NCBI GenBank assembly: GCA_031366795.1
Contig: JANLOX010000259.1
Location: 220-64,219, forward strand
Direction of reading: 5' to 3'
From: Candidatus Eiseniibacteriota bacterium
Lineage (GTDB): Bacteria > Eisenbacteria > RBG-16-71-46
DNA: 64,000 nucleotides
Position numbers and translations under genes: made by a program. A model generated the notes under the pieces. That model was given only the letters and a program-made list of their open reading frames with translations. It was not told the DNA's origin and ran no database searches. Positions within the stretch are counted from its first letter, which is position 1; every line of letters begins with the position of its first letter. Positions 8,222 through 24,791 of this stretch are shown here, piece by piece.

Positions 8222-9309
8222 GCGCGCGTAAGACGGCAACGGTGCGCAAACGTGGCTCCGCATCGCGCAACCGACGCGGCGGTGCCGCAGTCTCGCCCCT
8301 GGTACGCCGTCGCGTGGGCGCACGGGCGTTGCGACCCTGGATAGACAGGCTGCGCGACCTGCCCGCCGTGGTGTGGGGCGACTTCGTGCTGGATGAGTAC
8401 TGGCAGTGCCGCTCGACCCGCGTCTCGCGCGAGGCTCCGGTGCTCGTGCTCGACTATCGCTCGCGCTCGGCGGAGGGCGGCGGCGCCGCCAATGCTGCGC
8501 TCAACATGGCCTCACTTGGCGCACGCGTCGCGGTGGTCGGTTGGGTGGGCGCGGATCCGGCCGGCGAAGAAATCCGCACGCTGCTGGCGCGTGCCGGCTG
8601 TGACGTGCGCGGCCTGCTCGTGCATCCCAGCAATCCCACCATCGTCAAGACGCGCATCGTTGCGGGCGACGTGCACACCGCACTTCAGCAGGTCGTGCGC
8701 GTTGACCGTGGCGAGGCGTTTGCAGCGGACGCCGGTTCGCGTCGTCTATTAATGGAGGCGCTGCGCCGCGCCACGGCTGATGCGCGCGCGCTCGTGATGT
8801 CGGACTATGGCTACGACTCGGTCACCCCGGTGCTGGCGCGGCACGCGGCGCGCGCTTGGCCACGCCAGCTCGTTGTGGGCGTCGATGCGCGCTACCGGCT
8901 GGGCGACTACCGCAACGTCACCGTCGCGACGCCTAATGAGGGCGAGGCGGCCGCGGCGATCGGGCATGCCCTCGGCAGCGACGCCGAGTTGGCGCGCGGC
9001 GCGCAGTCGTTGCGGCGCCGCACGGGCGTCGAGCAGTTGATCGTGACGCGGGGGCGCGATGGCATGACGTTGTGGAATGGCGAAGGGGGTGCCTCGCTCG
9101 AAGCGTGGGGCGGGCACGAAGCGGTCGATGTGACGGGTGCGGGAGACGCGGTGGTCGCCACGGTGACGCTGGCGCTCGCCGCCGGTTCGCCGCCGCTTGC
9201 GGCCGCGGCCCTCGCCAATGTCGCGGGCTGCGTGGCGGTGAGTCGCCGCGGCGCCGTCGCGGTCACGCCGCACGAACTCCGCGACGCACTCGCCGGGGCA
9301 GGGGCCTGA
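8218..9309 (+). CDS. hldA: D-glycero-beta-D-manno-heptose-7-phosphate kinase (HldE domain I-like, PfkB family)
   Basis: AVVWGDFVLDEYW...EAPVLVLD...GGAANAALNMASLGA...DVTGAGDAVVA ribokinase-fold motifs, as in the RfaE/HldE kinase domain. GTG 8218 is preceded by GGGAGG (8206-8211) and overlaps the dxr stop. This start gives a basic 55-aa N-terminal extension. Confidence 0.75.
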   Translation: MSARKTATVRKRGSASRNRRGGAAVSPLVRRRVGARALRPWIDRLRDLPAVVWGDFVLDEYWQCRSTRVSREAPVLVLDYRSRSAEGGGAANAALNMASLGARVAVVGWVGADPAGEEIRTLLARAGCDVRGLLVHPSNPTIVKTRIVAGDVHTALQQVVRVDRGEAFAADAGSRRLLMEALRRATADARALVMSDYGYDSVTPVLARHAARAWPRQLVVGVDARYRLGDYRNVTVATPNEGEAAAAIGHALGSDAELARGAQSLRRRTGVEQLIVTRGRDGMTLWNGEGGASLEAWGGHEAVDVTGAGDAVVATVTLALAAGSPPLAAAALANVAGCVAVSRRGAVAVTPHELRDALAGAGA

Positions 9310-9310
9310 C

Positions 9311-9796
9311 ATGCGGCTCGCGGCCAGCAAGTTGCTCGATGTCGCGGATGCGGTCGCGACGGTCGCGGCATGGCGCGCTCAGGGCTCGCGCGTCGTGCTC
9401 GCCAATGGGGTGTTCGACCTGCTGCATGTCGGGCATGTGCGCTATCTCGAAGATGCGCGTGCCCAGGGTGATCGTTTGATCGTTGCCATCAACGGGGATG
9501 TCGAGACGGCGCGCATGAAGGGCGCCGGGCGTCCGGTGCTGCCCGCGACCGAGCGCGCGGCGCTCGTTGCAGCATTGCGTTGTGTCGACGCCGTGGTGGT
9601 GTTCGATGAGCCCACCGCCGATGCAATCCTCGAACGCCTCGCGCCGAACGTGCACGCCAAGGGCACCGACTACCGCGTGGATTCCGTGCCTGAGCGCGCG
9701 ACCGCCGAGCGCACCGGTGTGGCGACCGTCATCACTGGCGATCCGAAACAACATTCCAGCCGCGAGCTGGTGGAGCGCATTCGTGAACGATTGTAG
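9311..9796 (+). CDS. hldC: D-glycero-beta-D-manno-heptose 1-phosphate adenylyltransferase (HldE domain II-like)
   Basis: VVLANGVFDLLHVGHVRYLEDAR...LIVAINGD cytidylyltransferase-like (HxGH) fold. Sits immediately after the kinase gene. Confidence 0.8.
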   Translation: MRLAASKLLDVADAVATVAAWRAQGSRVVLANGVFDLLHVGHVRYLEDARAQGDRLIVAINGDVETARMKGAGRPVLPATERAALVAALRCVDAVVVFDEPTADAILERLAPNVHAKGTDYRVDSVPERATAERTGVATVITGDPKQHSSRELVERIRERL

Positions 9797-9814
9797 CGGC
9801 TACGGTCCCCGCGG

Positions 9815-10822
9815 ATGAGCGGCGCCGTGCTGGCGATCCGGTTGCGTGCGCTGGGCGACGTGGTCCTGACCACGCCGGCATTGCGCGCGCTGCATCGTGG
9901 CGATTCCGCGGCGCCCATCGATGTGGTGACCGACCAGTCCTATGTCGGATTGCTGGAGGGGTTGCCGGGCATCGATCGCGTCATCGGCCTGCGACGTGGC
10001 GCGGGCGGCATGCGCGCGGTGCTCGGCGCCATCCGCAAACGCTCGTATGCCCGCGCCGTCGACTTCTACGGCAACCCGCGCAGCGCCCTGATGACCAAGG
10101 TGAGCGGGGCGAAGGATTCTTTCGGCTACGATCTGCGCGGCCGCGGGCGCGCCTATCGTCATCGCATCGCGCGCGACGTCCCGATGGTCGAGGGCCGGCG
10201 CGAATACGCGGCGGCCTCGCATGTGCGGTTGGCGGTCGCAGCGGGCGGGCAGGACGACGGACTTGCCGCGCACGTGTCGCTCGCGCCCCAGGCCGTGGCG
10301 CAGGCGTCGGCGCTGCTGCATGCGGCGGGAATCCGCGAGCCGGGCGCAACGCTGGGTTTGATCGCCGCGGGAACGTGGGCCACCAAGACGTGGCCCGCCT
10401 CACATGCGGCGTGGCTCGCGCGCGGTTTGCTCAAGGCAGGGCGCGAAGTCCTGCTGCTCGCCGGGCCGCATGAGGACCACGTGACACACGCGCTCACATC
10501 GCTCGCGCCGGGCATCGCGGTGTTGCCACCGTGCGATGTGCCCTCGCTCGCCGCGGTGATCGCGCGGCTCGCGGGAGTGGTGGGCACCGACAGCGGGCCG
10601 CGCCATCTCGCGGCGGCACTCGGGCGGCCGACGTTCGCGTGGTTCGGCCCCACGCATCCCGATAACTGGACCGCCCCTGATCCTTCGCAAGGCGTGTGGT
10701 GGACCCAGGCGCCGTGCCGTGGTTGCAACCGCACCGCCTGCCCGCACTGGATCTGTCTTCCCGAGTTCCATCCCGACCGCGCCTTCGCGCTGGTGCAGGA
10801 GCATTTCGCGCGTCATGCCTGA
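9815..10822 (+). CDS. ADP-heptose:LPS heptosyltransferase (glycosyltransferase family 9)
   Basis: LAIRLRALGDVVLTTPALRAL...TDSGPRHLAAALGRPTFAWFGPT is the GT9 (WaaC/WaaF-type) pattern. Confidence 0.8.
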   Translation: MSGAVLAIRLRALGDVVLTTPALRALHRGDSAAPIDVVTDQSYVGLLEGLPGIDRVIGLRRGAGGMRAVLGAIRKRSYARAVDFYGNPRSALMTKVSGAKDSFGYDLRGRGRAYRHRIARDVPMVEGRREYAAASHVRLAVAAGGQDDGLAAHVSLAPQAVAQASALLHAAGIREPGATLGLIAAGTWATKTWPASHAAWLARGLLKAGREVLLLAGPHEDHVTHALTSLAPGIAVLPPCDVPSLAAVIARLAGVVGTDSGPRHLAAALGRPTFAWFGPTHPDNWTAPDPSQGVWWTQAPCRGCNRTACPHWICLPEFHPDRAFALVQEHFARHA

Positions 10823-11585
10823 ACGACTGCCGGTCTCCGTACTGCTTCTGGCGCGCGACGAAGCCGTAGCGCTGGCGGTGTTGTTGCCGGCGCTCGCGTT
10901 CGCCGCGGAGTGTGTGGTCGTGGTCGATGCAGCCACCACCGACGACAGCGCAGCCGCGGCCGGGCGCCTGGGTGCGCGCGTGTTCACACGCGCCCTCGAG
11001 GGCTTTGGCGCCCAGCGCAGCTTCGCGCTCGAACAGTGCCGCGAGCCGTGGGTGTTGTGGATCGACGCGGATGAACGGTTGGACAGGGCCGGTGTGGAGA
11101 CGATTTGCGCGGCGGTGACGCGTGGCGACGCGGACGGCTTCCGCATCAAACGTCGCACCTGGTTTCTCGGCCGCCCCATCCGCTTCTGCGGCTGGCGCAA
11201 TGAACGCGTGTTGCGGGTGTTCCGCCGCGATCGCGCGCGCTTCGATGCCAACCTCGTGCATGAGGAAGTGCATGTCGAGGGCCACATCGCGGACCTCGAG
11301 GCGACACTCGAACACCTGAGCTACGAGTCGTGGGACGAGGCGCGCCGCAAGCTGCTGCAATACTCCGCAGCCAATGCGCAACGGCTGGCCGCTGAACAAC
11401 GCACCGTCTCATTGCTGGATGTAATCGCGCGCCCACCGTTGCGCTTCGTGCGCATGTACTTGATGCAACTGGGATTCCTCGACGGCGCACGCGGGGTATT
11501 GCTGTGCGGGCTGGCGGCCACACAGGTGTTCCTCAAATACGCCGGGCGCTGGGCCGCGAGCCGCGGCATTGGGCCAGGCGCGTGA
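10815..11585 (+). CDS. Glycosyltransferase family 2
   Basis: VSVLLLARDEA...VVVVDAATTDDSAA...WVLWIDADERL (DxD) GT-A motifs. ATG 10815 overlaps the GT9 stop by 8 bp. Confidence 0.75.
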   Translation: MPERLPVSVLLLARDEAVALAVLLPALAFAAECVVVVDAATTDDSAAAAGRLGARVFTRALEGFGAQRSFALEQCREPWVLWIDADERLDRAGVETICAAVTRGDADGFRIKRRTWFLGRPIRFCGWRNERVLRVFRRDRARFDANLVHEEVHVEGHIADLEATLEHLSYESWDEARRKLLQYSAANAQRLAAEQRTVSLLDVIARPPLRFVRMYLMQLGFLDGARGVLLCGLAATQVFLKYAGRWAASRGIGPGA

Positions 11586-12652
11586 GGATTGGCTTCTTCG
11601 GCGCCTGGGACGCCGGCTACCCGCGCAATCGGATCCTGCGCGCGGGACTTGTCGCGGCGGGAGCCGAGGTGGTGGAGCTGCGGGTGCGCGAGCGGCGTGT
11701 CGTGTTTCGCTACCCGCGGCTGATGATGGCCTACGCGCGTGCTCCACGATTGGATGCCCTGTTCGTTCCGGCGTTCCGCCACAAGGACATGCCGCTGGCG
11801 CGTTGGCTCGCCGGGCGGCTGCCTGTGGTGTTCGATCCGCTGGTGTCGCGCTGGGACACGCTGGTGGAAGACTGGGCGATCCATGCGACGGACTCGCTGC
11901 AGGCGAAGTGGAATCGCACCATCGACCGGTGGTCCCTGCGGAGCGCGCAGGCGGTGCTGTGCGACACATGGGCGCATGGACGGTTGTTCACGGAGCTCGG
12001 CGCGCGGCCGGATTCGCTGGTTCGCATTCCGGTGGGAGCAGAGCAGCGCTTCTTCGAACTGCCGGACCCCCAGGACTCCGCGATCGTTGAAGTGTTATAC
12101 GTGGGCGGCTTCCTGCCGTTGCACGGTGTGCCGACGTTGATCGAGGCGTTATCGGAGTTGCAGCGTGACGATGCCACGTTGCCCGCCTACCGCGTGCGGT
12201 TCGTGGGCCGTGGTATCCAGGTCGACGTGGCGCGACAGCAGGCCGAGCGCAGGGCGCTGCGCCATGTGGTGTTCGAGGGCCCCCGTCCTTACGCGGATTT
12301 GCCCGTGGTGATGGGCAGTTCGCACATTGTTCTCGGCGCCTTCGGCGCAAGTGCCAAGGCGGGCCGCGTGGTGCCGCACAAAGTGTGGCAGGGGCTCGCC
12401 TCGGGGCGCGCCGTGCTCACCGGTGATGGCGACGGAGTGCGCGAGTGGTTCACCGATGGTGTGGAGCTGCTGAGCGTGCCGCGGGACGACGGGCAGGCGC
12501 TGGTCGCAGCACTGGCACGCCTGATCCGCGACGCCGGCCTGCGGCGCCAACTGGGCAAGGCGGGACGCGCGCGTGCGCTGCGGATCGGAACGCCCGCACA
12601 GCTGGGGCGCGAGTTGCTCGAGGTGTTCGAGCGGGTCGCGGGGGCAGCATGA
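11582..12652 (+). CDS. Glycosyltransferase family 1 (GT4-like)
   Basis: N-terminal VRIGFFGAWDAGYPRN and a C-terminal GT-B region (...VVFEGPRPYADLP...VWQGLASGRAVLTGD). GTG 11582 overlaps the upstream stop (GTGA). Confidence 0.7.
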   Translation: MRIGFFGAWDAGYPRNRILRAGLVAAGAEVVELRVRERRVVFRYPRLMMAYARAPRLDALFVPAFRHKDMPLARWLAGRLPVVFDPLVSRWDTLVEDWAIHATDSLQAKWNRTIDRWSLRSAQAVLCDTWAHGRLFTELGARPDSLVRIPVGAEQRFFELPDPQDSAIVEVLYVGGFLPLHGVPTLIEALSELQRDDATLPAYRVRFVGRGIQVDVARQQAERRALRHVVFEGPRPYADLPVVMGSSHIVLGAFGASAKAGRVVPHKVWQGLASGRAVLTGDGDGVREWFTDGVELLSVPRDDGQALVAALARLIRDAGLRRQLGKAGRARALRIGTPAQLGRELLEVFERVAGAA

Positions 12653-13767
12653 AGATCGCGCACGTCGATACCGGCCGCGAATGGCGAGGGGGACAGGCGC
12701 AGGTGGCGCTGTTGCTCGAGGGTCTTCGAGAGCGCGGGCACGAGGTCATGCTTGCGGCCCCCGACGCGCCGCTGTCGCAACGCGCGCGCGAACGTGGCAT
12801 CGAGTGGCTGGAGCTGAGGACCGGAGGCGACCTCGATCTCGGCGCCGGGGGGCGCCTCGCGCGGCGACTCGAAGCGTGGCGACCGGAACTGCTGCATGCG
12901 CACACGGCGCGCGCCCACACCGTGTCGCGCTCGGCGGGGCGCCGGCTCGGCGTGCCGGTGATCGTGTCGCGGCGTGTGATCACGCCGGTCGCGCGTAACC
13001 CCTTCAGCCGCCGCAAGTATCGCAGCGGCATCGCGCGCTACCTGTGCATCAGCCGCGCGGTGATGGATGTCCTGCGGGAGGGCGGCGTCGAGGCGAAGCG
13101 TTTGGCGCTGGTGCCGAGCGCCGTGGATTGCGAGCGTCTCGCGCAGGTGCGAGCCTCGGTGAACGCGGGGCAGGACCGCGTGTCGTTGCGGAATCTGATC
13201 GGGGCGGCCGAGCACGACACGGTGTTCGGCACTGCCGGGTCGGTCACGCGCGACAAAGGCGTCGATGAGTTTGCCGCCGCCGCGGCGATGGTGCTGGCGC
13301 GGTATCCCAATATGTGGGCCGTGTGGATCGGTGAGGGCCGCGACCGCGCGCGTCTCGAGCGGATCGCTTCAGGCCTCGGCATCGGCGCCCGCCTGCGCGT
13401 GCTGGGATTCCGCGCGGACGCGCATGCCTGCATCGCGCAACTCGACGTGTTTGTCTCGGCATCGCAGCACGAGGGCCTTGGCACCGCGATACTCGAGGCG
13501 CAGGCGCTGGGCGTGCCGGTGATTGCGACGGATTCACGCGGCGTGCGCGATTCCATCGAGGACGGCGTCAATGGCCGCCTGGTCAGCAATCCTCGCGCGC
13601 TGGGTGTGAGTCTGGGCGACGCTCTGGGCGATCGCGCCACACTCGATGGCTGGCGCGATAAGGCGCTGCGTTCGGTGAGGGAGTTCTCGCCACGGACCAT
13701 GCTCGTTCTCACGCTCGCTGAATACATGAAGGTGCGGGCCGAAGCCTCAACCGCTGCAGGGGATTGA
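12649..13767 (+). CDS. Glycosyltransferase family 1 (GT4-like)
   Basis: MKIAHVDTGREWRGGQAQV...; C-terminal ...SQHEGLGTAILEAQALGVPVIATDSRGVRDSIEDGVNG matches the EX7E GT4 motif. ATGA overlap with the upstream gene. Confidence 0.8.
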   Translation: MKIAHVDTGREWRGGQAQVALLLEGLRERGHEVMLAAPDAPLSQRARERGIEWLELRTGGDLDLGAGGRLARRLEAWRPELLHAHTARAHTVSRSAGRRLGVPVIVSRRVITPVARNPFSRRKYRSGIARYLCISRAVMDVLREGGVEAKRLALVPSAVDCERLAQVRASVNAGQDRVSLRNLIGAAEHDTVFGTAGSVTRDKGVDEFAAAAAMVLARYPNMWAVWIGEGRDRARLERIASGLGIGARLRVLGFRADAHACIAQLDVFVSASQHEGLGTAILEAQALGVPVIATDSRGVRDSIEDGVNGRLVSNPRALGVSLGDALGDRATLDGWRDKALRSVREFSPRTMLVLTLAEYMKVRAEASTAAGD

Positions 13768-13926: not shown

Positions 13927-13959
13927 GCGCCCAACTTATTAGCAAACAAGGAGTTGTCC

Positions 13960-15342
13960 GTGATCTGGAACAACTGGAACCAAGCGCTTCCCGGCGTGCT
14001 GCTGCTGGGGCTGGTCATTTTCGTGCACGAGCTCGGCCATTTCCTCATGGCGAAATGGCGCGGCGTACGTGTCCTGCGCTTCTCGATGGGCTTCGGCCCC
14101 AAGGTGGTCGGCTTCACGCACGGTGAAACCGAGTACCAGTTGTCGTGGATTCCGCTGGGCGGCTATGTCCAGATGGCGGGCGACGCGCCGGGCGAAGACG
14201 GCACGATGCCGGGCGGCCGCGAAGAATTCCTGTCCCACCCGTGGTTCGGACGCGTGCTGATCGCGGTCGCGGGCCCCGCTGCCAATCTGGTCACCGCGTT
14301 CGTGCTGCTCGCCGTCGTGGCGTTCATCGGGGTGAGCTATCCCGATTACCCGAATGTCGTCGGCGCCGCGCCGGACAGTAGCGTGGCGTACCAACTCGGA
14401 GTGCGCGGCGGCGATCATCTCGTGAGCGTCAACAGCAAACCGACCACCAGCTGGATCGCCGTGTTCGTGCGCAATTCGGCGACGTCGAAGCAGCAGGCGA
14501 TCGACGTGGGCGTGGAGCGCAACGGCGAGCACGTCACGCTCACCATCCCGTCGCGCATGCGCGAGCCGTTCTTCTCGAGCCTCAAGCGGCCCGCCGACGA
14601 ACCGCTGATCGGCGCCGTGGCGACGGGAATGCCGGCATACAAGGCCGGCCTCAAGGAAGGCGATCGCATTGTCGCCGTGGCGGGGCACCCCATCACGACG
14701 TGGGACGAGTTGCCGTTGGCCTTCCATGGCCAGGTCGATAAGCAGGTGCCGATCACGGTGCAGCGCGAGGGCCGTCAGTTCGAGGTCTCGGTCAAGCCAA
14801 TGGACCCCGAGGGCAAGGGTAAGGAGAACGGCCGGATCGGCATCGAGCCGCCGCGCCGTGGGACCTATATCGAGCGCCACGGTCTGCTGGAGTCGGTGGA
14901 TCTCGGCGCGCGCGCGACGGTGGGGCTGGTGAGTTCCGTCTACGCCGGCATGTGGCTCACGGTCAGCCGGCCGCTCTACTACCGCGAGTACGTCGGCGGA
15001 CCGCTGTTCATCGCCCAGGCGGCGCAGCAGCAGGCGAAGCGCGGGTGGGATGCCTACCTGCAGTTCATCGCCATGATCAACGTGGCCATCATGGCGTTCA
15101 ACCTGCTCCCGCTGCCGGTGCTCGATGGTGGTCACATCCTGCTCGCGGTGATTGAAGCGATCCGGCGCCAGGCGATTTCCGCGCGCTCGTACCTGCGCTT
15201 CCAGAAGGCGGGCCTGGCGTTGCTCGGCACCTTGTTGGTGTTGATCCTCGCGAACGATCCGCTGCGGCTGGTGCAGCGTCATCGCGCCATCGACCAGCAA
15301 TCCACGCCTGTTGAGCGGCCGGCTGCTCCGGTCAGCCCATAG
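13960..15342 (+). CDS. rseP: RIP metalloprotease RseP (site-2 protease, M50 family)
   Basis: HELGHFLMAK (HExxH in TM1), PDZ-containing middle and LDGGHIL C-terminal motif. GTG 13960 lies 6 nt after AAGGAG (13948-13953). Confidence 0.9.
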   Translation: MIWNNWNQALPGVLLLGLVIFVHELGHFLMAKWRGVRVLRFSMGFGPKVVGFTHGETEYQLSWIPLGGYVQMAGDAPGEDGTMPGGREEFLSHPWFGRVLIAVAGPAANLVTAFVLLAVVAFIGVSYPDYPNVVGAAPDSSVAYQLGVRGGDHLVSVNSKPTTSWIAVFVRNSATSKQQAIDVGVERNGEHVTLTIPSRMREPFFSSLKRPADEPLIGAVATGMPAYKAGLKEGDRIVAVAGHPITTWDELPLAFHGQVDKQVPITVQREGRQFEVSVKPMDPEGKGKENGRIGIEPPRRGTYIERHGLLESVDLGARATVGLVSSVYAGMWLTVSRPLYYREYVGGPLFIAQAAQQQAKRGWDAYLQFIAMINVAIMAFNLLPLPVLDGGHILLAVIEAIRRQAISARSYLRFQKAGLALLGTLLVLILANDPLRLVQRHRAIDQQSTPVERPAAPVSP

Positions 15343-15373
15343 CGGATCGCTTTCCCAACCCGGAGGACCCGCG

Positions 15374-17452
15374 GTGTCGGCACCATGGAAGGAGCCTGCC
15401 GCTGTTTCGCCAGCCCCACCTTGCAATCGTGGCGCCTCGCGCGCCCGGCGATGGCTTGCGGCGTGCCTCGCGATGGCCGTGACGGCGGTGATTGGAGTGG
15501 GGCTTGCGCCGGTACCTGCGCGGGCCCAGTTCGATTTCCCCGCCCAGCTCAAGACGATCGAGCGGGTGCGCTTTGAGGGCCGCCACCACGTTTCGAAGAA
15601 GGAGCTCTCCGCGGTGCTCAAGACGCGGAACCCTTCGATCTGGCCGTGGCACCATCCGGTGTTGATGCGGCTCGACTTCGTTCGGGCCGACACCTCGGCG
15701 CTCGAGCAGGTGTGCTGGCAGCGTGGCTATCTCGACGCCGTCGTGAACTCCCGCCTCGATCCGGGCACGCGGCCCGAAGGCGTGGTGGTCACGTACGTCA
15801 TCCACGAAGGCCCCCGCTACCACGTCGGCAGCGTGAAAGTATCGGGACTCGATTTGATTCCGGAGGCGCCGATCCGCCGGCATCTGTTTGCCCGCTCCGG
15901 GAAGCCGTACAACCCGTTCTACCTGTATGCCGACACCGCCAGTATCGCGGCCGCGTGCCGTGAGCACGGCTTCCTGCCCGGCGTCTCGGCGCTCGCCGAG
16001 CGGCGCGGCGCGCAAGGGCAGGCGGGCAGCGCGGAACACGACACGACGTTGTACGACATCGAATATTTCGTGGAGTTGGGACGCAAGTACAAGTTCGGTG
16101 AAGTGAACCTGTCGTCCCCGGGGCAGACCCACGTGAAGCCGCGGCTGGTGCTGCGCGAGATCGTGTTCAAGCCGGGCGAGACGTACAAGGCGTCCGAGGT
16201 GCAGGAGTCGATCGAGCAGATTTACGGCACCAGCCTGTTCAACCTGGTCCAGATGACGCCGCTGCCGGACTCGACGAACGGCGTTGTCGAGTTCGATCTC
16301 CACATCCGCGAACGCCGGCCGCGCTGGCTGGCCGCCGGCGTGGGCAGCGGCACGGCGGAGCGTTTCCGCTTCACGGGCGAGTGGGGCCATCGCAACCTCA
16401 ACGCCCGTGGCTTGCAGGCCGTGGTGTCCTCCAAGCTCGCGCTCGACGGCAATGCGCGCTTCCTGTTGGCGCGCGGCGAGGCGACGCTGTACGACCCGTG
16501 GCTGTTGCGCCAACGGCGCCGCGGCTCGGCGACGTTTTTCATCGAGGGCGTGCATGATCGCGCGAACCCGGACTTCTTCCTCAGGCAGGACAGCCGGGGC
16601 GTGAACTTCCAGATCCGCCGCGACTATCACCGATTCACCCGGCTGGTCGTCACGCAGGCAAACAGCTACGTGCACCAGCGCTTCGATCTGCTCGCTGCGG
16701 ACTCGGCTCGCACCGAGGCGCTGCGCGACTCCATTCCGCCGCATTACTCCACCCACCGGCTGCAGTTGGCGGTCGAGCGGGATGACCGCGACGACCTGAT
16801 CAACCCGTTCCGCGGCACCTACACGAATTTCACCGGGGACATCGCGGGCGGGCCCTTGCAGGGCAGCAGCAGTTTCACCCGCGTCTCCGCCACGACATCG
16901 TGGTACGTGACCGTGCACGGCAACTCCGTGCTGGCGTTCAGGGTGCGGGCCGGATCCATCGATCCGTTCGGCAAGGCGAATGTGTTCACGCCCGTCACGA
17001 TCGACTCGCGCGTGCAGCGTGTGCCGATCGAGGATCGCTTTCGCTTAGGGGGAGTGAACTCGATTCGCGGCTATACCGAGAATGCCTTGCCCGGCTCGGG
17101 CGGGCTCGCCATGCTGCTCGCCAATGTCGAATTGCGTGTGCCGCTGGTGGGGCCGTTCGGGGCGGAATTCTTCGGCGACGCCGGCAACGTCTGGGCGCGT
17201 CCTTCATTCATGAACGTGGGAAGCTTTAAGCTCCGGCTTTCGGATGACTACTATGACTTGAACGCGGTGCGCTACGTGGCGGGTATGGGGCTGCGCCTGA
17301 ACCTGCCGTTCGGTCCGCTGCGCTTCGATGTGAGTTGGTCGTCGCAGCCCGACCGTGGCTCGCGCGAGCCCGGAGTTCCGCCGGACTCGAAGCACCAGGA
17401 CCTGCGCGACCGCCGCATCCATCCACAGATTGCCATTGGCACCACCTTCTAG
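15374..17452 (+). CDS. bamA: Outer membrane protein assembly factor BamA (POTRA domains plus Omp85 barrel)
   Basis: Signal peptide RRWLAACLAMAVTAVIGVGLAPVPARAQ. POTRA-like repeats (IERVRFEGRHHVSKKEL...). C-terminal barrel with the SIRGY variant and a terminal ...QIAIGTTF beta-signal. GTG 15374 lies 6 nt after GGAGGA. Directly downstream of rseP, as in many diderms. Confidence 0.85.
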   Translation: MSAPWKEPAAVSPAPPCNRGASRARRWLAACLAMAVTAVIGVGLAPVPARAQFDFPAQLKTIERVRFEGRHHVSKKELSAVLKTRNPSIWPWHHPVLMRLDFVRADTSALEQVCWQRGYLDAVVNSRLDPGTRPEGVVVTYVIHEGPRYHVGSVKVSGLDLIPEAPIRRHLFARSGKPYNPFYLYADTASIAAACREHGFLPGVSALAERRGAQGQAGSAEHDTTLYDIEYFVELGRKYKFGEVNLSSPGQTHVKPRLVLREIVFKPGETYKASEVQESIEQIYGTSLFNLVQMTPLPDSTNGVVEFDLHIRERRPRWLAAGVGSGTAERFRFTGEWGHRNLNARGLQAVVSSKLALDGNARFLLARGEATLYDPWLLRQRRRGSATFFIEGVHDRANPDFFLRQDSRGVNFQIRRDYHRFTRLVVTQANSYVHQRFDLLAADSARTEALRDSIPPHYSTHRLQLAVERDDRDDLINPFRGTYTNFTGDIAGGPLQGSSSFTRVSATTSWYVTVHGNSVLAFRVRAGSIDPFGKANVFTPVTIDSRVQRVPIEDRFRLGGVNSIRGYTENALPGSGGLAMLLANVELRVPLVGPFGAEFFGDAGNVWARPSFMNVGSFKLRLSDDYYDLNAVRYVAGMGLRLNLPFGPLRFDVSWSSQPDRGSREPGVPPDSKHQDLRDRRIHPQIAIGTTF

Positions 17453-17462
17453 GCGCCCACCG

Positions 17463-20400
17463 ATGACCGACCCGACACCTCCCGAATCGAACGAGCCGCC
17501 CAAGGGACCGGAACCGCTCGGTCTGGTGGAGGAGCTGCGCCATGAGATCGAGGAGGTCGTCGAACACGTTCCCGAGAAGGTGCGCTGGACGGTGCGTAAG
17601 CTCGTGCTGATCAGCATCGCCGGTGTGGTCGGGCTCATCGTGCTGGCGATCGTGTCTGTGGCGTTGTACTACGCCAACCGCACCGAGCTCGTAGCGCACG
17701 AGTTGACGCTGTTCCTCAATCACACGCTCGACACCCGCAGCAATGTGCGCATCGAATTCTCCGACATTCGCGGCAATCCATTCCAGCGCCTCCGGCTGGT
17801 GCAGCCTCGCGTGGTGTTCCGTGACAGCGGTCGTCCGCTGCTCGAGGCGCCCTGGATCGAGATTGGTTACTCGCCGATGAGCCTGCTCAAGCGCGACGGC
17901 AAGACGGTGGACGTGGCCGTCGAGTCACCGGCGATCCACTTTGAGCGCGGCGCGGACGGAGCACTGCTGCTGCCTACATGGAAGACGGCGGGCAGCGCCG
18001 GCAGCGCGCGGACGGTTGACATGAAATTCCGGCTGCACCAGGGCACCGTCGATTTGCCCATACAGGAGGGCAGGATCGAGGGACTCGATATCGATGCTTC
18101 GCTGGCGACGGGAGTGGCGAGCCGTGCGGTGATCCGTTCGATGAAGTGGCGCAAGGGTCCTTTCGATTCGCGGCAACTCGAATTCACGGGAGAGGTCTCC
18201 GCCGGTGACAGCGTGCAGGTGCACGTGGAGCGTTTGACCACGGCCGGTTTCGCGCTGAGCGGCGATGGCGGCTGGCGCAAGGGGGAGAAGGCCAAGTGGG
18301 TCCACGCCGCGGTGTCCCGGTTGAGCTGGAAGTACCTTGCGGGCATCAGCGGCAACAACACGTTCGATGTGCCGGGCAATGCGGTGGCCACGATTGATGC
18401 GCGAGGGGACTCGATCTGGCACGGCCAGTTCCGCGCGCAGGTCAACTGGAATGGGCTGGATGCCGCGGGCAACGGAGCGTTCGAGTGGAAGGGCCAGCGC
18501 ATGAGCGTCGAGTCGCTGGCCGCGCAGTCGAAGGCGGGAGACCTCAAGGGACACTTCAGCTGGTCGCGGTTGGGTTGGGATGTCGGCGGGGACGTCAGCG
18601 GTGGCCAGCCGTCGTTGTGGGACGCGATCGGCATTCCCGGTTGGCCCGCGGGTAAGCTGAATGGGCGCTTCGAGTATGCGGTCAGCACACGCAACCGTAT
18701 TTCGAACGGCACACTCACGGCGCAACTGACGCCCTCGGAACTGGCGGGATGGCGCGCCGACTCGACGACCGTGACCGCCGACCTGCCCTCGCGCGGCACG
18801 CGGGTCTTCGATGTGCACTCGTTGCGGCGCGGGGGACACTTCGAGTTGCACGGTGAAACGCTCGAGCACGGCTGGGACGGCACTTACAAGGTGGCGGCAC
18901 TGCCGCTTGACGAGTGGCCGGATGGCCGCGCGAGCGGTATTCGCGGCCTGCTCGACGCGGGTGAGGGGACGGTCCATGTGACCGACGGCAAGATGTCGGT
19001 GACGGGCAATCTCATGGGACGGGGCACCGATTGGCTGGGTCTGCACACGGCGCGCTGGAAACTCTCGGACGTCAACGGACTGTTGTTGCCGGCGCCTGAC
19101 CTGGTGGCGCGCGCCGGGATCGAGGACGTGATGTTCCTCGGGCTGCACTTCGACAGCGCGGCGAGTCCCATTCATCTCGGTGACCGCAATCTCGACCTGC
19201 AGTCCATGACCGCCCAGGCCGGCGACACCCTGCTCGCATTCGCGGGGCGCGCGGATTGGAACGCGGCGGCGTGGCAACTGGAGATGAGCCGCGCGCAGCT
19301 GACGAGCCAGCAGTTTCACTGGACCGCGGATCCGCCCGTGCAGTTCGTCGGCGACCCCCAGGGCGTCACCTTCCGCCGTTTGGTCGCGCACGATGGCGAT
19401 GCCTCGATGCAGATCAGCGGCCGCTGGGGAGGCCCCGGTGGTCGCTACGACTGGCGTGCCGAAGCGCTGCGGCTCGATCTCGCGCGGCTGGGGTTGCCGG
19501 TCGAGTGGGGCCTCAAGGGCACGAGCGATGCGACGTTGCGGGTCGAAGGCGTTTACGGTGATCCGCGCTGGACCTTCGAGGGACGCGCCTCGCAGCCCGC
19601 GTTCGGCGGGCACCATGGTGACTCGCTGGATCTCGCGCTCACCGGCGCGATGTCTCGCGTCGGCATCGACCGCATGAAGTTCATGATCGGCGGTGGCGAG
19701 CTCGCGGCCCACGGCCGCGTGGAGCGGATGACCAGGGCATGGCCCGATTCGCTGACCGGTACCGCCGTGCAACGCTGGTTGCTCACTTCGGCGGCGTGGT
19801 CGGGCGGCATCGATGCGAATGGCTTCCCGATCGAACGCGTGACGGGCCTGTTTCCCGCGAGCAATGGTTGGGCAGGAAGACTCGAAGGGCATGTGGCGGT
19901 GGGCGGGAACCCCGCGCGGCCTGAACTCGATGTGAAGGCGGTGGTGAAGCCACTGACGTGGCACGACTTCAACATGGAAAAGATCGAAGCCGAGGGGAAG
20001 TACGCGGATGAGCGGCTCGCCGTCACGCGGCTCAAGGCGACGCGCCTGCAACTCGAGTCGACGGCCGAGGGAACGATCCCGATCCGGATCGCGTTCGACC
20101 GTCCGTGGGTATTGCTCGACAAGCCGATGGACGCCACCCTGCACGTGCGCCAGGGAGATCTTCGCCTGCTGCCGCGTCTGGTCCCGCAACTGGCCGCGGC
20201 ATCGGGGAGTCTCGAGGCCGACGCCACAATTCATGGAACGCCGCTCAAACCCGATCTGGATGGCCGCGGCCGAATCAGTGGCGGTTCGTTGCGGCTGGCC
20301 GGTCGCGACGAATTGCTCGACCACATGTCGGGGTCCTTCCGGCTCAACCAATCCACGCTTACGCTCGATTCGCTGACGGCCCGCGAGGGCGAGGCGGGGC

Positions 20401-21521
20401 GGCTGCGCGCGAGTGGCAGCGTGAAGCTCGACCGGCTGGTGCCGAGTGGCTACCACATCGATCTCGTCTTGAGCGACTTCACCGCGTCCGACCCGGGGCT
20501 GTATGCCGCGCAATTCGACGGCAACTTCCAGGTGACGGATGGCCCCCACGTGCGCGGCCAGTGGCTGCCACTCGTCACCGGCTCGGCGGTCATCAACCGG
20601 GCAGTGGTCTTGATCGATTTCGCGAACCAATCCGAGAGCGCGCAGCTGGCGTCGTCGAACCCGCCGCTGTACTGGGTGTACCGCATCGACCTGAGTGCCA
20701 AGAGCAACCTGCACTGGCAGCCGCCCGATGGGGACATCGAATTCAGCGCAGACCTGACCGCCGAGCAGACGCCGACGGAGTTGCGGCTGTTCGGGGAGAT
20801 GCAGTCGTTGCGCGGCACCTACTACTTCCTGAGCAACCGCTTCACGGTCAACAACGCGACCCTGACGTTCGACAATGTCTCGGGCCTGAATCCCACGCTC
20901 GACGCGAGCGCCACCACGCGCGTCGTCCCGCTGGCCACCGCCGCGGACATCAGTGCCAACGCCAGCAAACCCGTGGCCCACGAGGTGACGGTCACCATTA
21001 CAGGCAGATCGAGGGAGCCGGTGATCGCGTTCGAGAGCAGTCCTTCCGATTGGGATGAAAACGAAATCCTGCGCGAATTGACGGTGCTGCGGTTCGTGAA
21101 GGGCGGCGTCGCCCAGGGGGATCCGTTCGACAATTACCTGACACGCGCCTTGAACCGCACGCTGTCCGCCGAAATGTCGCGGGCCTTCAAGGGATACGTG
21201 AGCGACTGGACCTTCGAACGCGACCAGGGTGGACTTGCCAGGGGCGAGGGCGAAGTAACGGTGAGCGCCGCCTCGCAGGTGACGCGCAACCTGCTGCTCC
21301 GTTATAGCCAGCGGGTGCCAGGGCTCGGCCGCGATGTCATCGCGGCGCCGACTGTGGGAACGACCCCGTTCGAGCGGGATTTCCAGGCGGAGTACCGGTT
21401 GAACCGCCTGTTCCTCATCAGTTCGGAGCTGCGCCAGCGGCGCAGCCTCACGGGAACTGGGGCAAATCCCTCCTCGGCGCCGGACTTCAACGTCGACTTG
21501 AAGGCTCGTTGGGAATACTGA
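17463..21521 (+). CDS. tamB: Translocation and assembly module protein TamB (AsmA-like, DUF490 C-terminus)
   Basis: 1353 aa. N-terminal signal-anchor (LVLISIAGVVGLIVLAIVSVALYY), a long beta-rich body and a DUF490-like C-terminus (...LLLRYSQRV...EYRLNRLFLISSEL...). 10 bp after the bamA stop. Confidence 0.8.
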   Translation: MTDPTPPESNEPPKGPEPLGLVEELRHEIEEVVEHVPEKVRWTVRKLVLISIAGVVGLIVLAIVSVALYYANRTELVAHELTLFLNHTLDTRSNVRIEFSDIRGNPFQRLRLVQPRVVFRDSGRPLLEAPWIEIGYSPMSLLKRDGKTVDVAVESPAIHFERGADGALLLPTWKTAGSAGSARTVDMKFRLHQGTVDLPIQEGRIEGLDIDASLATGVASRAVIRSMKWRKGPFDSRQLEFTGEVSAGDSVQVHVERLTTAGFALSGDGGWRKGEKAKWVHAAVSRLSWKYLAGISGNNTFDVPGNAVATIDARGDSIWHGQFRAQVNWNGLDAAGNGAFEWKGQRMSVESLAAQSKAGDLKGHFSWSRLGWDVGGDVSGGQPSLWDAIGIPGWPAGKLNGRFEYAVSTRNRISNGTLTAQLTPSELAGWRADSTTVTADLPSRGTRVFDVHSLRRGGHFELHGETLEHGWDGTYKVAALPLDEWPDGRASGIRGLLDAGEGTVHVTDGKMSVTGNLMGRGTDWLGLHTARWKLSDVNGLLLPAPDLVARAGIEDVMFLGLHFDSAASPIHLGDRNLDLQSMTAQAGDTLLAFAGRADWNAAAWQLEMSRAQLTSQQFHWTADPPVQFVGDPQGVTFRRLVAHDGDASMQISGRWGGPGGRYDWRAEALRLDLARLGLPVEWGLKGTSDATLRVEGVYGDPRWTFEGRASQPAFGGHHGDSLDLALTGAMSRVGIDRMKFMIGGGELAAHGRVERMTRAWPDSLTGTAVQRWLLTSAAWSGGIDANGFPIERVTGLFPASNGWAGRLEGHVAVGGNPARPELDVKAVVKPLTWHDFNMEKIEAEGKYADERLAVTRLKATRLQLESTAEGTIPIRIAFDRPWVLLDKPMDATLHVRQGDLRLLPRLVPQLAAASGSLEADATIHGTPLKPDLDGRGRISGGSLRLAGRDELLDHMSGSFRLNQSTLTLDSLTAREGEAGRLRASGSVKLDRLVPSGYHIDLVLSDFTASDPGLYAAQFDGNFQVTDGPHVRGQWLPLVTGSAVINRAVVLIDFANQSESAQLASSNPPLYWVYRIDLSAKSNLHWQPPDGDIEFSADLTAEQTPTELRLFGEMQSLRGTYYFLSNRFTVNNATLTFDNVSGLNPTLDASATTRVVPLATAADISANASKPVAHEVTVTITGRSREPVIAFESSPSDWDENEILRELTVLRFVKGGVAQGDPFDNYLTRALNRTLSAEMSRAFKGYVSDWTFERDQGGLARGEGEVTVSAASQVTRNLLLRYSQRVPGLGRDVIAAPTVGTTPFERDFQAEYRLNRLFLISSELRQRRSLTGTGANPSSAPDFNVDLKARWEY

Positions 21522-21632
21522 CGCATCTCAAAGCGCTGCGGGGAACCGGGAATGGGGCCGAAGGTGTACATTAGTGGGGGGCGTATCGTGCTGGAGTCGG
21601 CGCCGGGTGGTCGATTCGGAAAGGATCGCTGT

Positions 21633-24600
21633 ATGTCTCGTTTCACCCTTGGCCTCCTGGCGGGGCTGATGCTGTGCCTCGGGGTCATCCCCGCGGGTGC
21701 CCAGACCTTTGGCCAGAACAAGGTCCAGTACGCCCGCCACCAATGGCGCTCGATCGGGTCCGACCACTTCGAGGTGTACTTCTACGACGGGCTCGACAGC
21801 CTCGCGATGCGAGTGCTCGACCTGGCCGAGAAGACCAACGCCGTCATGACCGCGCGGCTCGGGCACCAGCTCGGGCGCCGCGTCCCGATCATCCTGTACG
21901 GTTCCCACAACGATTTCGCCCAGACCAACGTCACTCCCGAACTGATCGACGCCGGCACGGGCGGGTTCACCGAAGTGCTGCGCAACCGTGTCGTGCTGCC
22001 CTTCACCGGTTCCTATGAGGACCTGCGGCATGTGGTGGTGCATGAACTGACTCACGCCTACATGTTCGACATGTTGTATGCCGGCTCCGCGGCTTCGCTG
22101 ATTGCGCGGCAAGGCTTCTACTCGGTGCCGTTGTGGTTCGCCGAGGGCATGGCCGAGTACTTCTCGCTCGGCGTGGAGTCGAATGCGGAAGTGTTCCTGC
22201 GCGACGGCACGGTCGAGGGCTACCTGCCGCCGCTCGAGTATTCCGGCGGCTACATCGTCTACAAGCAGGGACAGTCCGCCATCAGCTACCTGGTCGATCG
22301 CTACGGCGAGGACCGGCTGCGTGACATCCTCAAGCGCTCGCGCCAGATGCACAATTTCGACCGCGCCTTCCAGAAGAGCATGGGGCAGCCTGTCTCGAAG
22401 TTCGACGAGGGCTGGCGCACCTGGCTGCGCAAGCGCTACTGGCCGGCCGTCGCGAGCAAGAGCTCGCCCGAGGAATTCGCGCGCCGCCTGACTGACCATC
22501 GCCACGACGAGAGCAACCTCAACACGGCGCCGTCGATTTCGCCGCAGGGCGACCGCATCGCGTTCTTCTCTGACCGCCGCCAGTACACCGACGTGTATGT
22601 CATGTCGGCATTGGACGGCAAGATCATCCGGCGCGTGATTCGCGGCGAGCGCAACGTCCAGTTCGAGAGCATTCCGTCCTTCCGCAGCACGATGACCTGG
22701 TCGCCCGACGGTTCCCGCCTGGCGCTCACCGCAAAGAGCGGCGGCCACGATGTGCTCTATGTGCTCGATGCCCACTCGGGCAGGGTCGAGCGCCGTGTCG
22801 AGATGCCGTGCGACGCGTTGTTCGACCCGGCGTGGTCCCCGGTCTCGGATTCACTCGTCGTGGCGGGCGTCACGGCCGGCCGCTCGGACCTGTGGCTGGT
22901 GGAGCTCAAGACCGGGCACCGCCAGCGGCTGACCGACGATGCGTATGATGAGAAGGAGCCGGCGTGGTCACCCGACGGCTCGCGAATCGTGTTCTCGACC
23001 GATCGCGGCACGCCGGTCGTCCTGCACCCGAAGCGCCATGAAGGCGGCTTCGGCGAGTACGGCCTCTACGAGATGACCGTGGCGGGTGGCGAGGTACGCC
23101 GGGTGCTCGACACGGCGGGGGATGACCACAGCCCGCAGTGGTCGCCCGACGGCAAGCTGCTGGGGTTCATCACCGACTACAGCGGCACGCCGAACATCCA
23201 CGTGTTCGATCCCGCGGACTCCTCGGTGACTCAGCTCACTGATGTGCTCGGGGGAGTGCAGGGCATGTCGTGGTCGCGGCAGAACGACCGCCTGGTGTTC
23301 TCCGCCTACAACCAGGGCGGCTTCGATATCTTCGGCGTGCGTGAGCCGCTCGCCGTCAATGGCGTACTGGCGCGATTGCGTCGCGATGCTCCGTCCGCCG
23401 TTCGCTCGGTGAGCGCGATGTTCGTGGCGCCGAAAGATTCCACGGTTGCGCCGCCGCAATTCGGGGCGCTCGCCGGTGCATGGCCCGATTCGATCGCCGC
23501 GAGTTCGGACAAGGACCGGCGTTCCGAACATCACGATGGCGCCTCGCGCGACACCCTGCGCCTCGACCGCATGGACGAGGACAACCGGCCGGGTTGGATG
23601 GCGGGACCACATCCGTTCCCCGCGTTGCCGGACAGCGTGACGCCACTGGCGACGCGCATCCCACTGCATGATGAAGGGGGGCCGTTCGCGCTCCCTGACT
23701 CGGTGCTGGGCCAGAAGGCTCGCGCCTACCGGCCGCACCTGGCCCCGGACTACGGTGGCGCGGGCTTCTACGCCGCCACGGGCTACGGTTTCGTGGGCAG
23801 CACGCAGTTCGTGTTCTCGGATTTCCTCGGCGACCATAGCCTGTATGTCGCGACGGACGTGTTCAGTAATTCGATTTCCGAGACCAATGCGCTCGCCATT
23901 TACCGTTACCTGCCGCGCCGCTGGGACTTTGGCGCCGGGCTGTTCCACTTCAAGAACTACTTCAACTCGCAGGTGTCCACGCTGGGTGAGTCGTTCGGTT
24001 CATCGCGGTTGTTTTCGGAGCGCAACTTTGGCGGCTTGGTCTCGGCCTCATATCCGTTCGACCGCTTCCATCGCGCGGAGTTCAACTTCACGCAGATGTT
24101 CCTCGAGCGCCAGTTCTTCGTGCGCGATGTGTTCGGGGACGTGGCGGCGGCAAACCACGAGTACCGCTCGGTATCGTCGCCATCGGTATCGCTGGTGTCG
24201 GACAATTCACTGTTCGGCTACTACGGACCGGTCAACGGGCAGCGCTGGAACCTGACCTATGGGCCATCGTTCGCGTGGTTCCAGAATGGACTGGCGTATA
24301 ACACGGTGACGTTCGATGGCCGGCGCTACTGGGACCTCACGCGCGGCTACACCTTCGCGACGCGCGTCCTCGCCGGCGCCAGTGACGGCCGGAATCCGCA
24401 GACCTTCAGGATCGGCGGGTTCTCGACGCTGCGCGGCTTCCCTGACTTCTCCCTCCTCGGCTCGCGCGTGTCGCTCGTATCCGCCGAATTGCGCTACCCG
24501 TTCATCCAGCAACTGGGGCTGGTGGGTCCGCTGCCGGTGGGATTGTTCAACCTGCGCGGCGTCATATTCGGCGACGTGGGTGCGATCTGGAGCGGGGGCG

Positions 24601-24791
24601 AGAAGATCCGCTTCAGCGAAAATGGCCGCCTGACGGATCCGCTCAAAGGTCCAGGCGTCGGGATGAGCTTCGGCACGGGACTGCGCACATCGCTGTTGTT
24701 CCTGATCGTGAAGCTCGATGTGGCGTGGCGCACGGATCTTCAGCAGGTAAGTCGTCCACGCTGGCACTTTAGCCTGGGCCCCGAATTCTAG
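21633..24791 (+). CDS. Omp85-family outer-membrane beta-barrel fused to an N-terminal gluzincin-like peptidase domain and a six-bladed TolB/PD40-type propeller (novel architecture)
   Basis: Signal peptide MSRFTLGLLAGLMLCLGVIPAGAQ. HExxH (VVHELTHAYM, nt 22041-22055) plus WFAEGMAEYF Glu motif. Six PD40-like repeats: ISPQGDRIAF, WSPDGSRLAL, WSPVSDSLVV, WSPDGSRIVF, WSPDGKLLGF, WSRQNDRLVF. C-terminal ~350 aa carries the Omp85 barrel hallmarks (GGFSTLRGF, FGDVGAIW, GMSFGTGLRTSLLFLIVKLDVAW, terminal WHFSLGPEF). ATG is preceded by AAAGGA. Confidence 0.8.
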   Translation: MSRFTLGLLAGLMLCLGVIPAGAQTFGQNKVQYARHQWRSIGSDHFEVYFYDGLDSLAMRVLDLAEKTNAVMTARLGHQLGRRVPIILYGSHNDFAQTNVTPELIDAGTGGFTEVLRNRVVLPFTGSYEDLRHVVVHELTHAYMFDMLYAGSAASLIARQGFYSVPLWFAEGMAEYFSLGVESNAEVFLRDGTVEGYLPPLEYSGGYIVYKQGQSAISYLVDRYGEDRLRDILKRSRQMHNFDRAFQKSMGQPVSKFDEGWRTWLRKRYWPAVASKSSPEEFARRLTDHRHDESNLNTAPSISPQGDRIAFFSDRRQYTDVYVMSALDGKIIRRVIRGERNVQFESIPSFRSTMTWSPDGSRLALTAKSGGHDVLYVLDAHSGRVERRVEMPCDALFDPAWSPVSDSLVVAGVTAGRSDLWLVELKTGHRQRLTDDAYDEKEPAWSPDGSRIVFSTDRGTPVVLHPKRHEGGFGEYGLYEMTVAGGEVRRVLDTAGDDHSPQWSPDGKLLGFITDYSGTPNIHVFDPADSSVTQLTDVLGGVQGMSWSRQNDRLVFSAYNQGGFDIFGVREPLAVNGVLARLRRDAPSAVRSVSAMFVAPKDSTVAPPQFGALAGAWPDSIAASSDKDRRSEHHDGASRDTLRLDRMDEDNRPGWMAGPHPFPALPDSVTPLATRIPLHDEGGPFALPDSVLGQKARAYRPHLAPDYGGAGFYAATGYGFVGSTQFVFSDFLGDHSLYVATDVFSNSISETNALAIYRYLPRRWDFGAGLFHFKNYFNSQVSTLGESFGSSRLFSERNFGGLVSASYPFDRFHRAEFNFTQMFLERQFFVRDVFGDVAAANHEYRSVSSPSVSLVSDNSLFGYYGPVNGQRWNLTYGPSFAWFQNGLAYNTVTFDGRRYWDLTRGYTFATRVLAGASDGRNPQTFRIGGFSTLRGFPDFSLLGSRVSLVSAELRYPFIQQLGLVGPLPVGLFNLRGVIFGDVGAIWSGGEKIRFSENGRLTDPLKGPGVGMSFGTGLRTSLLFLIVKLDVAWRTDLQQVSRPRWHFSLGPEF

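Follow-up and report, generated by a model that had tools for sequence, protein, structure and literature searches.

The Omp85/TpsB superfamily of outer-membrane proteins has been divided into ten subfamilies, one of them called "WD40-Omp85" (Heinz and Lithgow, Front Microbiol 2014, PMC4104836). The architectures given for this cluster combine PF07676 with PF01103 (Table S2 of that paper), and each of the ca. 95 members tabulated (Table S3) has a BamA/TamA barrel match, a TolB match and a "best aminopeptidase hit" (1z5h, 4kxd, 4ar1/4ar9 or 3qnf). In the text the propeller was likened to a BamA-BamB fusion and the peptidase site was not discussed. Afterwards "WD40-Omp85" is mentioned in passing (PMC5582053), as are "divergent WD40 and peptidase domains" (PMC11358297), and a 2024 paper puts the WD40-like subfamily with those "not well characterized", as "intriguing targets" (PMC11116518). 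Here we analyse a gene, X, found in a stretch of 64,000 nucleotides (nt) from Candidatus Eisenbacteria (contig JANLOX010000259.1; this whole stretch is called the window below). Its product is a new member of WD40-Omp85: an aminopeptidase/collagenase-like N-terminal domain and PD40 repeats precede an Omp85 barrel, and there are no POTRA domains. The original prediction, made from the letters of the window, implied that this architecture was novel, which it is not: it is very common, was already catalogued in 2014 and is not itself a discovery. The accompanying claim that no protein built like this has been characterised is in line with the 2024 paper. In the Eisenbacteria lineage the gene directly follows bamA and tamB, and some orthologs in that position have lost the catalytic motif. 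The reading that we tentatively prefer, while regarding it as somewhat short of probable, is that X is an outer-membrane-tethered periplasmic capture-and-cleave module that works with BamA and TamB and does not depend wholly on catalysis for its role.

A peptidase and a propeller on an Omp85 barrel

X is one uninterrupted open reading frame (ORF; 21633-24791, forward strand, stop codon at 24789-24791) of 1052 amino acids (aa). There is also an in-frame ATG upstream, at 21552; we place the start at 21633 because close homologs begin at this position (MSRF...). With this start the protein has the typical signal peptide that had been predicted, cleaved after AGA (aa 24), within which the structural model has a helix of low confidence (aa 2-16). 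The model was obtained with AlphaFold2 for the full-length protein and had a mean pLDDT (predicted local distance difference test) of 85.9 and a pTM (predicted template modelling score) of 0.86. The input was an alignment of 74 diverse family members (mean column identity 28%), which was also used for conservation. The parts of X follow each other in the order signal peptide, peptidase domain, propeller, linker and Omp85 barrel (Table 1). We considered whether X might be a lipoprotein and rejected it, as the cysteine of the signal peptide lies outside any lipobox and is not conserved in homologs. An artefact of frameshift or gene fusion was rejected too, given the single continuous frame and the hundreds of full-length homologs, and X is one gene and not several. 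More than 120 cluster representatives match it over the full length with 60-94% identity, and among the best 150 representatives at 50% clustering 132 are full length (at least 900 aa).

The barrel of X belongs to the Omp85 superfamily. The motifs that define this superfamily are (V/I)RG(F/Y) in loop 6 and (F/G)xDxG on strand 13, and X has RGF and FxDxG, the latter within FGDVGAIW (aa 979-986); R934, G935 and FxDxG are conserved in at least 90% of the 74 sequences. In the model there are exactly 16 long strands between aa 704 and 1048, mostly with pLDDT above 90. The family profile (74 members) matched the barrel of Escherichia coli BamA (E ~1e-8, BamA 493-808, ca. 290 positions) and the Omp85 chain 9ccg_A (E 2.6e-11), the model matched BamA in Foldseek (E 1e-10, probability 1.0), and the C-terminus of X could be aligned by tblastn with the BamA encoded in the window itself (29-31% identity, E ~1e-5). 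The C-terminal residue is aromatic in 125 of the 132 full-length representatives. Among the NCBIfam models, Omp85_fam (E 7.9e-9) and BamA (E 1e-6) were found below their curated cut-offs, TIGR03303 (BamA) with 27.4 bits against 297. Of the Pfam matches that the original prediction expected, PD40 and a Peptidase_MA-type domain (Peptidase_MA_2) were found, and PF01103 was not: X alone gives no match to it in a local Pfam scan, and it is recorded for many homologs. The Omp85 identity of X is therefore based on the profile, fold and motif matches given above. X thus shares with BamA and TamA the 16-strand barrel, the loop-6 RG[FY], FxDxG, the aromatic C-terminus and a short last strand. It differs from both in its low scores and in having no POTRA domain, where BamA typically has five and TamA three, the latter binding the coupling loop and helices of TamB (PMC13119328), and BamA has its own gene, two genes upstream of X. 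Orthology to BamA (no POTRA, score under the equivalog cut-off) and to TamA (no POTRA, score under the curated cut-off) was rejected.

The repeats of WSPDG/PD40 type that had been noticed in the sequence are present at aa ~300-570 and correspond in the model (aa 297-569) to 24 strands, i.e., six blades of four. Pfam PD40 was matched with E 1.1e-22, the family profile matched TolB structures with E 4e-31 and Foldseek put the full model close to TolB (E 1e-11, probability 1.0). The Pfam models Tricorn_N and Tricorn_2nd match homologs of X. The NCBIfam TolB model was also matched (E 1.5e-39), only in its propeller part and with 136 bits against an equivalog cut-off of 343, and on these grounds TolB orthology was rejected. 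The six-bladed PD40 propeller is what X has in common with TolB and tricorn; the N-terminal TolA-binding domain of TolB is missing. Between propeller and barrel lies a linker with pLDDT below 50 at aa 614-657 (low-confidence segment aa ~600-690), which is also the least conserved part of the family (column conservation ~0.18) and varies in length from 61 to 198 aa. Neither the Pfam scan nor the model showed a POTRA domain in X, and a POTRA hidden in the linker was rejected on the scan, the linker's conservation and length, and the model. On the other side of the propeller, a strand at aa 283-285 adjoins the first blade in the model and may belong to its sheet, and we infer from the model that peptidase and propeller could be packed together as one rigid unit. 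We have hardly any doubt about the architecture as a whole (peptidase, propeller and POTRA-less barrel); the absence of POTRA and the three parts that the original prediction had described were all confirmed by Pfam, profiles and the model, and so were the 16 strands and six blades that it expected.

The peptidase domain

The mature protein begins with an alpha/beta domain (aa 26-290 in the model) that matched Pfam Peptidase_MA_2 over aa 72-266 (37.0 bits, cut-off 32.4). It has HELTH exactly where it had been reported, and EGMAE, as well as FGDVGAIW and ...WHFSLGPEF in the barrel, were also found as described. Invariant in the 74-member alignment are H137, E138, H141, W168, E171, G172, E175 and Y210. 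HExxH followed 28-35 aa later by EGxxE is found in 128 of the 132 full-length representatives, that is, the spacing holds in every one of the 128 that have HExxH. The domain therefore has the HExxH, downstream glutamate ligand and thermolysin-like fold of a clan MA gluzincin, and the invariant motif residues predict a catalytically competent enzyme. A profile of the N-terminal domain matched Vibrio collagenases (E 2.3e-4), with HExxH aligned to HEYVH and the W-F-x-E-G-x-A-E-Y of the family to the W-W-S-E-G-V-A-E-Y of M9 collagenases; by this alignment the third zinc ligand is probably E175. In members with intact motif the peptidase is the best conserved domain (identities to X of 84/73/68, 74/61/55, 55/42/40 and 46/37/36% for peptidase/propeller/barrel).

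The folds closest to this domain are those of secreted collagenases, lugdulysin and aminopeptidases, and the structural relatives found for X are those in Table S3 of PMC4104836. What is common to X and M9, M30 or M1 enzymes is only the catalytic domain of ca. 265 aa, and X lacks the activator of collagenases and the N- and C-terminal domains of M1. Orthology to M9 was rejected (Peptidase_M9 at 16.9 bits with a cut-off of 26, only the peptidase subdomain aligned, no activator domain) and so was orthology to M1, for which there is no Peptidase_M1 match, the domain having only ~265 aa and GGFTE (aa 110-114) instead of GxMEN. This GGFTE (window 21960-21974) is near-invariant (G111, T113 and E114 at least 90%) and stands on a strand 23 residues before HExxH, at the position where M1 aminopeptidases have the GxMEN exopeptidase motif, which hints that the domain could anchor a free N-terminus, with an aminopeptidase-like specificity. 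The mature N-terminus itself, (Q)xFGQNKVQY (aa 25-34, window 21705-21734), is strongly conserved family-wide, with G27 invariant and F26, N29, K30 and Y33 at 90% or above, something unusual for the extreme end of a mature protein; this segment may form a strand of the structure, act on the active site as a plug or pro-segment, or serve for docking.

Family and distribution

An exhaustive search among 1.84 billion representatives clustered at 50% identity gave 1,712 proteins at E<=1e-30. No solved structure of the whole architecture was found by sequence search; TolB, tricorn, BamA and collagenase match as separate domains. When the species-representative genomes were scanned with the X protein, only close relatives appeared, most of them labelled Eisenbacteria and one record Saccharimonadaceae, and the wider taxonomic spread of the family rests on the 2014 paper and on metagenome representatives. 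A contig labelled Ilumatobacteraceae (Actinomycetota; L011, 3-116) has at its very edge a further match, 38 residues long and 63% identical to aa 214-251 in the peptidase domain. Its shortness precludes interpretation, and chance or a binning contaminant may account for it.

Genomic neighbourhood

The neighbourhood of X in the window is a canonical one for envelope biogenesis, with the gene order rpsB ... uppS, cdsA, dxr; a PfkB-type kinase, a heptosyltransferase and two GT4 glycosyltransferases; rseP, bamA, tamB, X; uvrD/pcrA, gatA, gatB and purD. No terminator-like sites were found at the bamA/tamB/X junctions in the window, and the start codon of X is preceded by a gap of 111 nt that contains a Shine-Dalgarno-like AAAGGA. 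We examined ten related loci from the species-representative genomes, most of them labelled Candidatus Eisenbacteria. The order rseP-bamA-tamB-X(-uvrD) is kept in all seven that reach far enough upstream, down to 51% identity; of the other three, one has the 3' end of tamB directly before X and two are short, with X and then uvrD only. At 42-43% identity, two loci (L015, L019) still have rseP-bamA-tamB-X with uppS-cdsA-dxr upstream. L015 has a 4-bp overlap of tamB with X, and start and stop also overlap in L023 and in the contig of P0123. The expected synteny of orthologs with bamA and tamB was thus seen in the Eisenbacteria lineage down to ca. 42% identity and was missing in members at ca. 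39% or less; since these distant members have unrelated neighbours, the linkage, though real, is confined to one clade. A bamA-tamB linkage of WD40-Omp85 genes was not found in the literature searched.

Other details of these neighbourhoods are as follows. For bamA and tamB the longest ORFs start at 15311 and 17355, ~30 and ~100 nt inside the genes before them, and TamB is matched in tblastn from ~aa 78 onwards, so the true starts probably lie further downstream. The C-terminus of TamB (window 21480-21521) is aromatic and beta-signal-like. The PfkB-family kinase, GT9 heptosyltransferase and two GT4 genes (lipopolysaccharide core-like; window 8173-13767) stand between dxr and rseP, in an otherwise canonical uppS-cdsA-dxr-rseP-bamA cluster; glycosyltransferase genes are directly upstream of rseP also in L020 and L023, and dxr is there instead in L015 and L019. 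The member at 32% identity in L016 (13138-20777) has after it genes for a TPR protein and a heptosyltransferase, then ExbB-ExbD-ExbD-TonB and an OEP/TolC-like gene, an envelope-related neighbourhood unlike that of the window. At window 37677-38663 there is a MoxR-type AAA+ ATPase (AAA_3, bpMoxR) with several same-strand ORFs after it, unrelated to X, which may be an operon of MoxR-vWA type.

Table 1. Features of X and of the genes upstream of it, with coordinates in the window.
Feature	Position (nt)	Strand	Evidence or remark
Signal peptide, aa 1-24 (...IPAGA/QT)	21633..21704	+	Sec/signal peptidase I type; translation, homolog N-termini, model
Gluzincin (clan MA) peptidase domain, aa 25-290	21705..22502	+	
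HExxH zinc-binding/catalytic motif, H137 E138 L T H141 (HELTH)	22041..22055	+	invariant in 74-sequence alignment
EGMAE, E171...E175	22143..22157	+	E171, G172, E175 invariant in 74-sequence alignment
Six-bladed TolB/PD40-type beta-propeller, aa 297-569	22521..23339	+	PD40, TolB profiles, Foldseek, model
Disordered linker, aa 570-703	23340..23741	+	low pLDDT, poor conservation, variable length
16-strand Omp85-type beta-barrel, aa 704-1052, aromatic end ...WHFSLGPEF	23742..24788	+	model, profile, Foldseek, tblastn
Loop-6 RGF motif, R934 G935 F936	24432..24440	+	beta11-beta12 loop, between strands 907-919 and 945-963
FxDxG motif, F979 G D981 V G983	24567..24581	+	strand 13 (969-986)
tamB, directly upstream of X	17355..21521	+	Pfam TamB E 2.2e-33; product ends ...DLKARWEY
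bamA, Omp85 with POTRA domains (longest ORF)	15311..17452	+	Pfam Omp85 E 8.9e-41, POTRA E 4.3e-18; best NCBIfam BamA E 1.5e-60
rseP, M50 site-2 protease with PDZ, head of the rseP-bamA-tamB-X block	13954..15342	+	Pfam Peptidase_M50 E 1.7e-57

Orthologs without the catalytic motif

HExxH is absent from four of the 132 full-length representatives. These are not stray paralogs; all four are encoded directly after tamB. P0122 has HQMVH and lies within rseP-bamA-tamB-X-uvrD-gatCAB-purD on a contig of 4.16 Mb (L020, 10001-12970); P0125 has HQLTH, in the order tamB-X-uvrD (L021, 1479-4523); P0123 has RELAQ, together with QGLAE, in tamB-X with start and stop overlapping; and P0136 has RELAR, within rseP-bamA-tamB-X-uvrD-gatCAB (L023, 10001-12808). 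In these proteins the lead of the peptidase is gone (identities to X of 49/51/50, 44/54/45, 48/52/47 and 40/46/41% for peptidase/propeller/barrel) and Y210 is lost in three, while RG[FY], FxDxG and the GPEF C-terminus are kept in all four. From the domain identities and the barrel motifs it follows that constraint has been relaxed on the peptidase specifically and that propeller and barrel are still under selection. This suggests that propeller and barrel may carry a function of their own. Catalytically dead WD40-Omp85 orthologs were not found in the literature searched. In L020 the neighbours are as similar to those of the window (RseP 66%, GatA 74%) as in ordinary Eisenbacteria loci, with X down to 46%, which suggests that this X may have diverged faster after the loss of catalysis.

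Proposed role and alternative explanations

The barrel, judging by its fold and motifs, anchors X in the outer membrane. Having an even number of strands, an Omp85 barrel leaves both termini in the periplasm. All Omp85 N-terminal domains with experimentally determined topology are periplasmic, including that of PlpD, formerly thought to be secreted (PMC11116518). PlpD, a patatin-Omp85 protein (formerly "type Vd"), has, like X, an enzyme domain N-terminal to the barrel and offers the periplasmic precedent (PMC11116518), but the enzyme there is a patatin lipase with one POTRA, and in X it is a peptidase with propeller, disordered linker and no POTRA. By analogy with these topologies the N-terminal module of X is likely to be periplasmic, and it would stay there on a flexible tether of 60-200 residues, which would let it range over the outer membrane's periplasmic face close to BAM (beta-barrel assembly machinery) and TAM (translocation and assembly module). 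TolB binds disordered peptides, and the propellers of tricorn and prolyl oligopeptidase gate substrates. A similar propeller in X would capture or filter unfolded or disordered polypeptide for the active site, where the peptidase, with its invariant catalytic residues, would cleave it. In the Eisenbacteria lineage, if the conserved operon is a guide, X would work together with BamA and TamB in the biogenesis or quality control of the outer membrane, and the orthologs that lost the active site suggest that part of this role may be non-catalytic, as scaffold or chaperone, as in BepA. The likeness to BepA concerns the proposed principle only, a zinc peptidase at the site of outer-membrane assembly with proteolytic and non-proteolytic roles: BepA promotes the maturation of LptD and also degrades it (PMC8423444). 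The two are not homologous, BepA being an M48 peptidase with TPR, soluble and recruited to BAM, and X an M9/M1-like gluzincin with a propeller on its own barrel; Pfam found neither Peptidase_M48 nor TPR in X. We regard a capture-and-cleave role specifically associated with BAM and TAM as somewhat less likely than not. The ideas of the original prediction, a quality-control protease or capture module or else a partner of TamB, remain plausible, and the conserved bamA-tamB-X synteny lends them some support.

The partner of TamB deserves to be considered in its own right. X could be a TamA-like outer-membrane receptor, its barrel forming a hybrid with the C-terminal beta-signal strand of TamB, in which case TamA and TamL would be joined by a third kind of TAM and the peptidase-propeller would be an accessory that can be inactivated in some lineages. 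In all orthologs that were examined X comes directly after tamB, in some with the overlaps mentioned, orthologs without the catalytic motif keep barrel motifs and operon position, and the TamB of the window has an aromatic end (...RWEY). In TamA it is strand beta1 of the barrel that binds TamB, at the latter's beta-signal (PMC13119328). However, TamB also needs contacts with POTRA2 and POTRA3 of TamA (PMC13119328), and X has no POTRA, whereas the gene directly upstream of tamB encodes a BamA that does have POTRA domains. Operons of BamA with TamB have been documented (PMC4494059), and an interaction of the two proteins is reported in Borrelia (PMC5582053). Besides, distant family members are unlinked to tamB, and the invariance of the active site in 128 of 132 members would be left unexplained. 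We consider a receptor of this kind unlikely. Less likely again is the fuller proposal that in Eisenbacteria and related lineages X is the dedicated outer-membrane partner of TamB, a POTRA-less "third TAM" whose barrel makes the hybrid with TamB and whose tethered propeller and peptidase link the delivery of lipids or proteins to quality control by proteolysis, with catalysis secondary because orthologs survive without it.

Two other explanations take the protease out of the BAM/TAM context. One would be that X is a surface-displayed protease (type V-like), the linker threading the barrel so that the module degrades environmental proteins outside the cell for nutrition. The disordered, length-variable linker before the barrel would suit such a protein, as would the nearest peptidase folds, those of secreted collagenases and lugdulysin; phyla that degrade polymers are rich in WD40-Omp85 members, and in FhaC an N-terminal helix crosses an Omp85-type pore. 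It is rather improbable in our view, against the uniformly periplasmic topologies described above and the fact that the barrels of BamA and TamA are closed to the outside (PMC4104836), and it would explain neither the membership in a bamA/tamB operon nor the retention of catalytically dead orthologs. The other alternative is that X is a general outer-membrane-anchored periplasmic peptidase (one that, e.g., turns over peptides or lipoproteins or remodels the envelope) and is not specifically tied to BAM or TAM. The synteny would then be an accident of the conserved uppS-cdsA-dxr-rseP-bamA neighbourhood that became frozen in one lineage. There is no synteny outside the Eisenbacteria-related clade, L016 has its TPR, heptosyltransferase, ExbBD-TonB and OEP genes instead, and downstream of X the functionally unrelated uvrD, gatAB and purD are equally syntenic. 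We find this explanation doubtful all the same, as it has to contend with the translational coupling of X to tamB and with the persistence of X in its slot after catalytic decay, hard to fit with a purely enzymatic role.

Several points weigh against the capture-and-cleave module at BamA and TamB that we prefer. The members at loci L012, L013, L016, L018 and L022 (31-39% identity) are not adjacent to bamA or tamB. The peptidase is structurally nearest to secreted collagenases and aminopeptidases and not to BepA (M48). In other phyla there appear to be several paralogs per genome, to go by runs of similar UniProt accessions in Table S3 of PMC4104836; such multiplicity would fit diversified hydrolases better than a single housekeeping factor. 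In the literature searched there is no experimental study of any WD40-Omp85 member, only the 2014 catalogue and passing mentions.

If the capture-and-cleave module is the right reading, X would be a factor for quality control or a scaffold that is fused to a barrel of its own, where BepA is recruited to BAM. To our knowledge, few large Omp85 subfamilies have no known function, and WD40-Omp85 is one of these. What is added here, a lineage-specific bamA-tamB-X operon and catalytically dead orthologs, makes this uncharacterised family more testable, and the lineage that has the operon points to BAM and TAM as the place to seek its partners and substrates.

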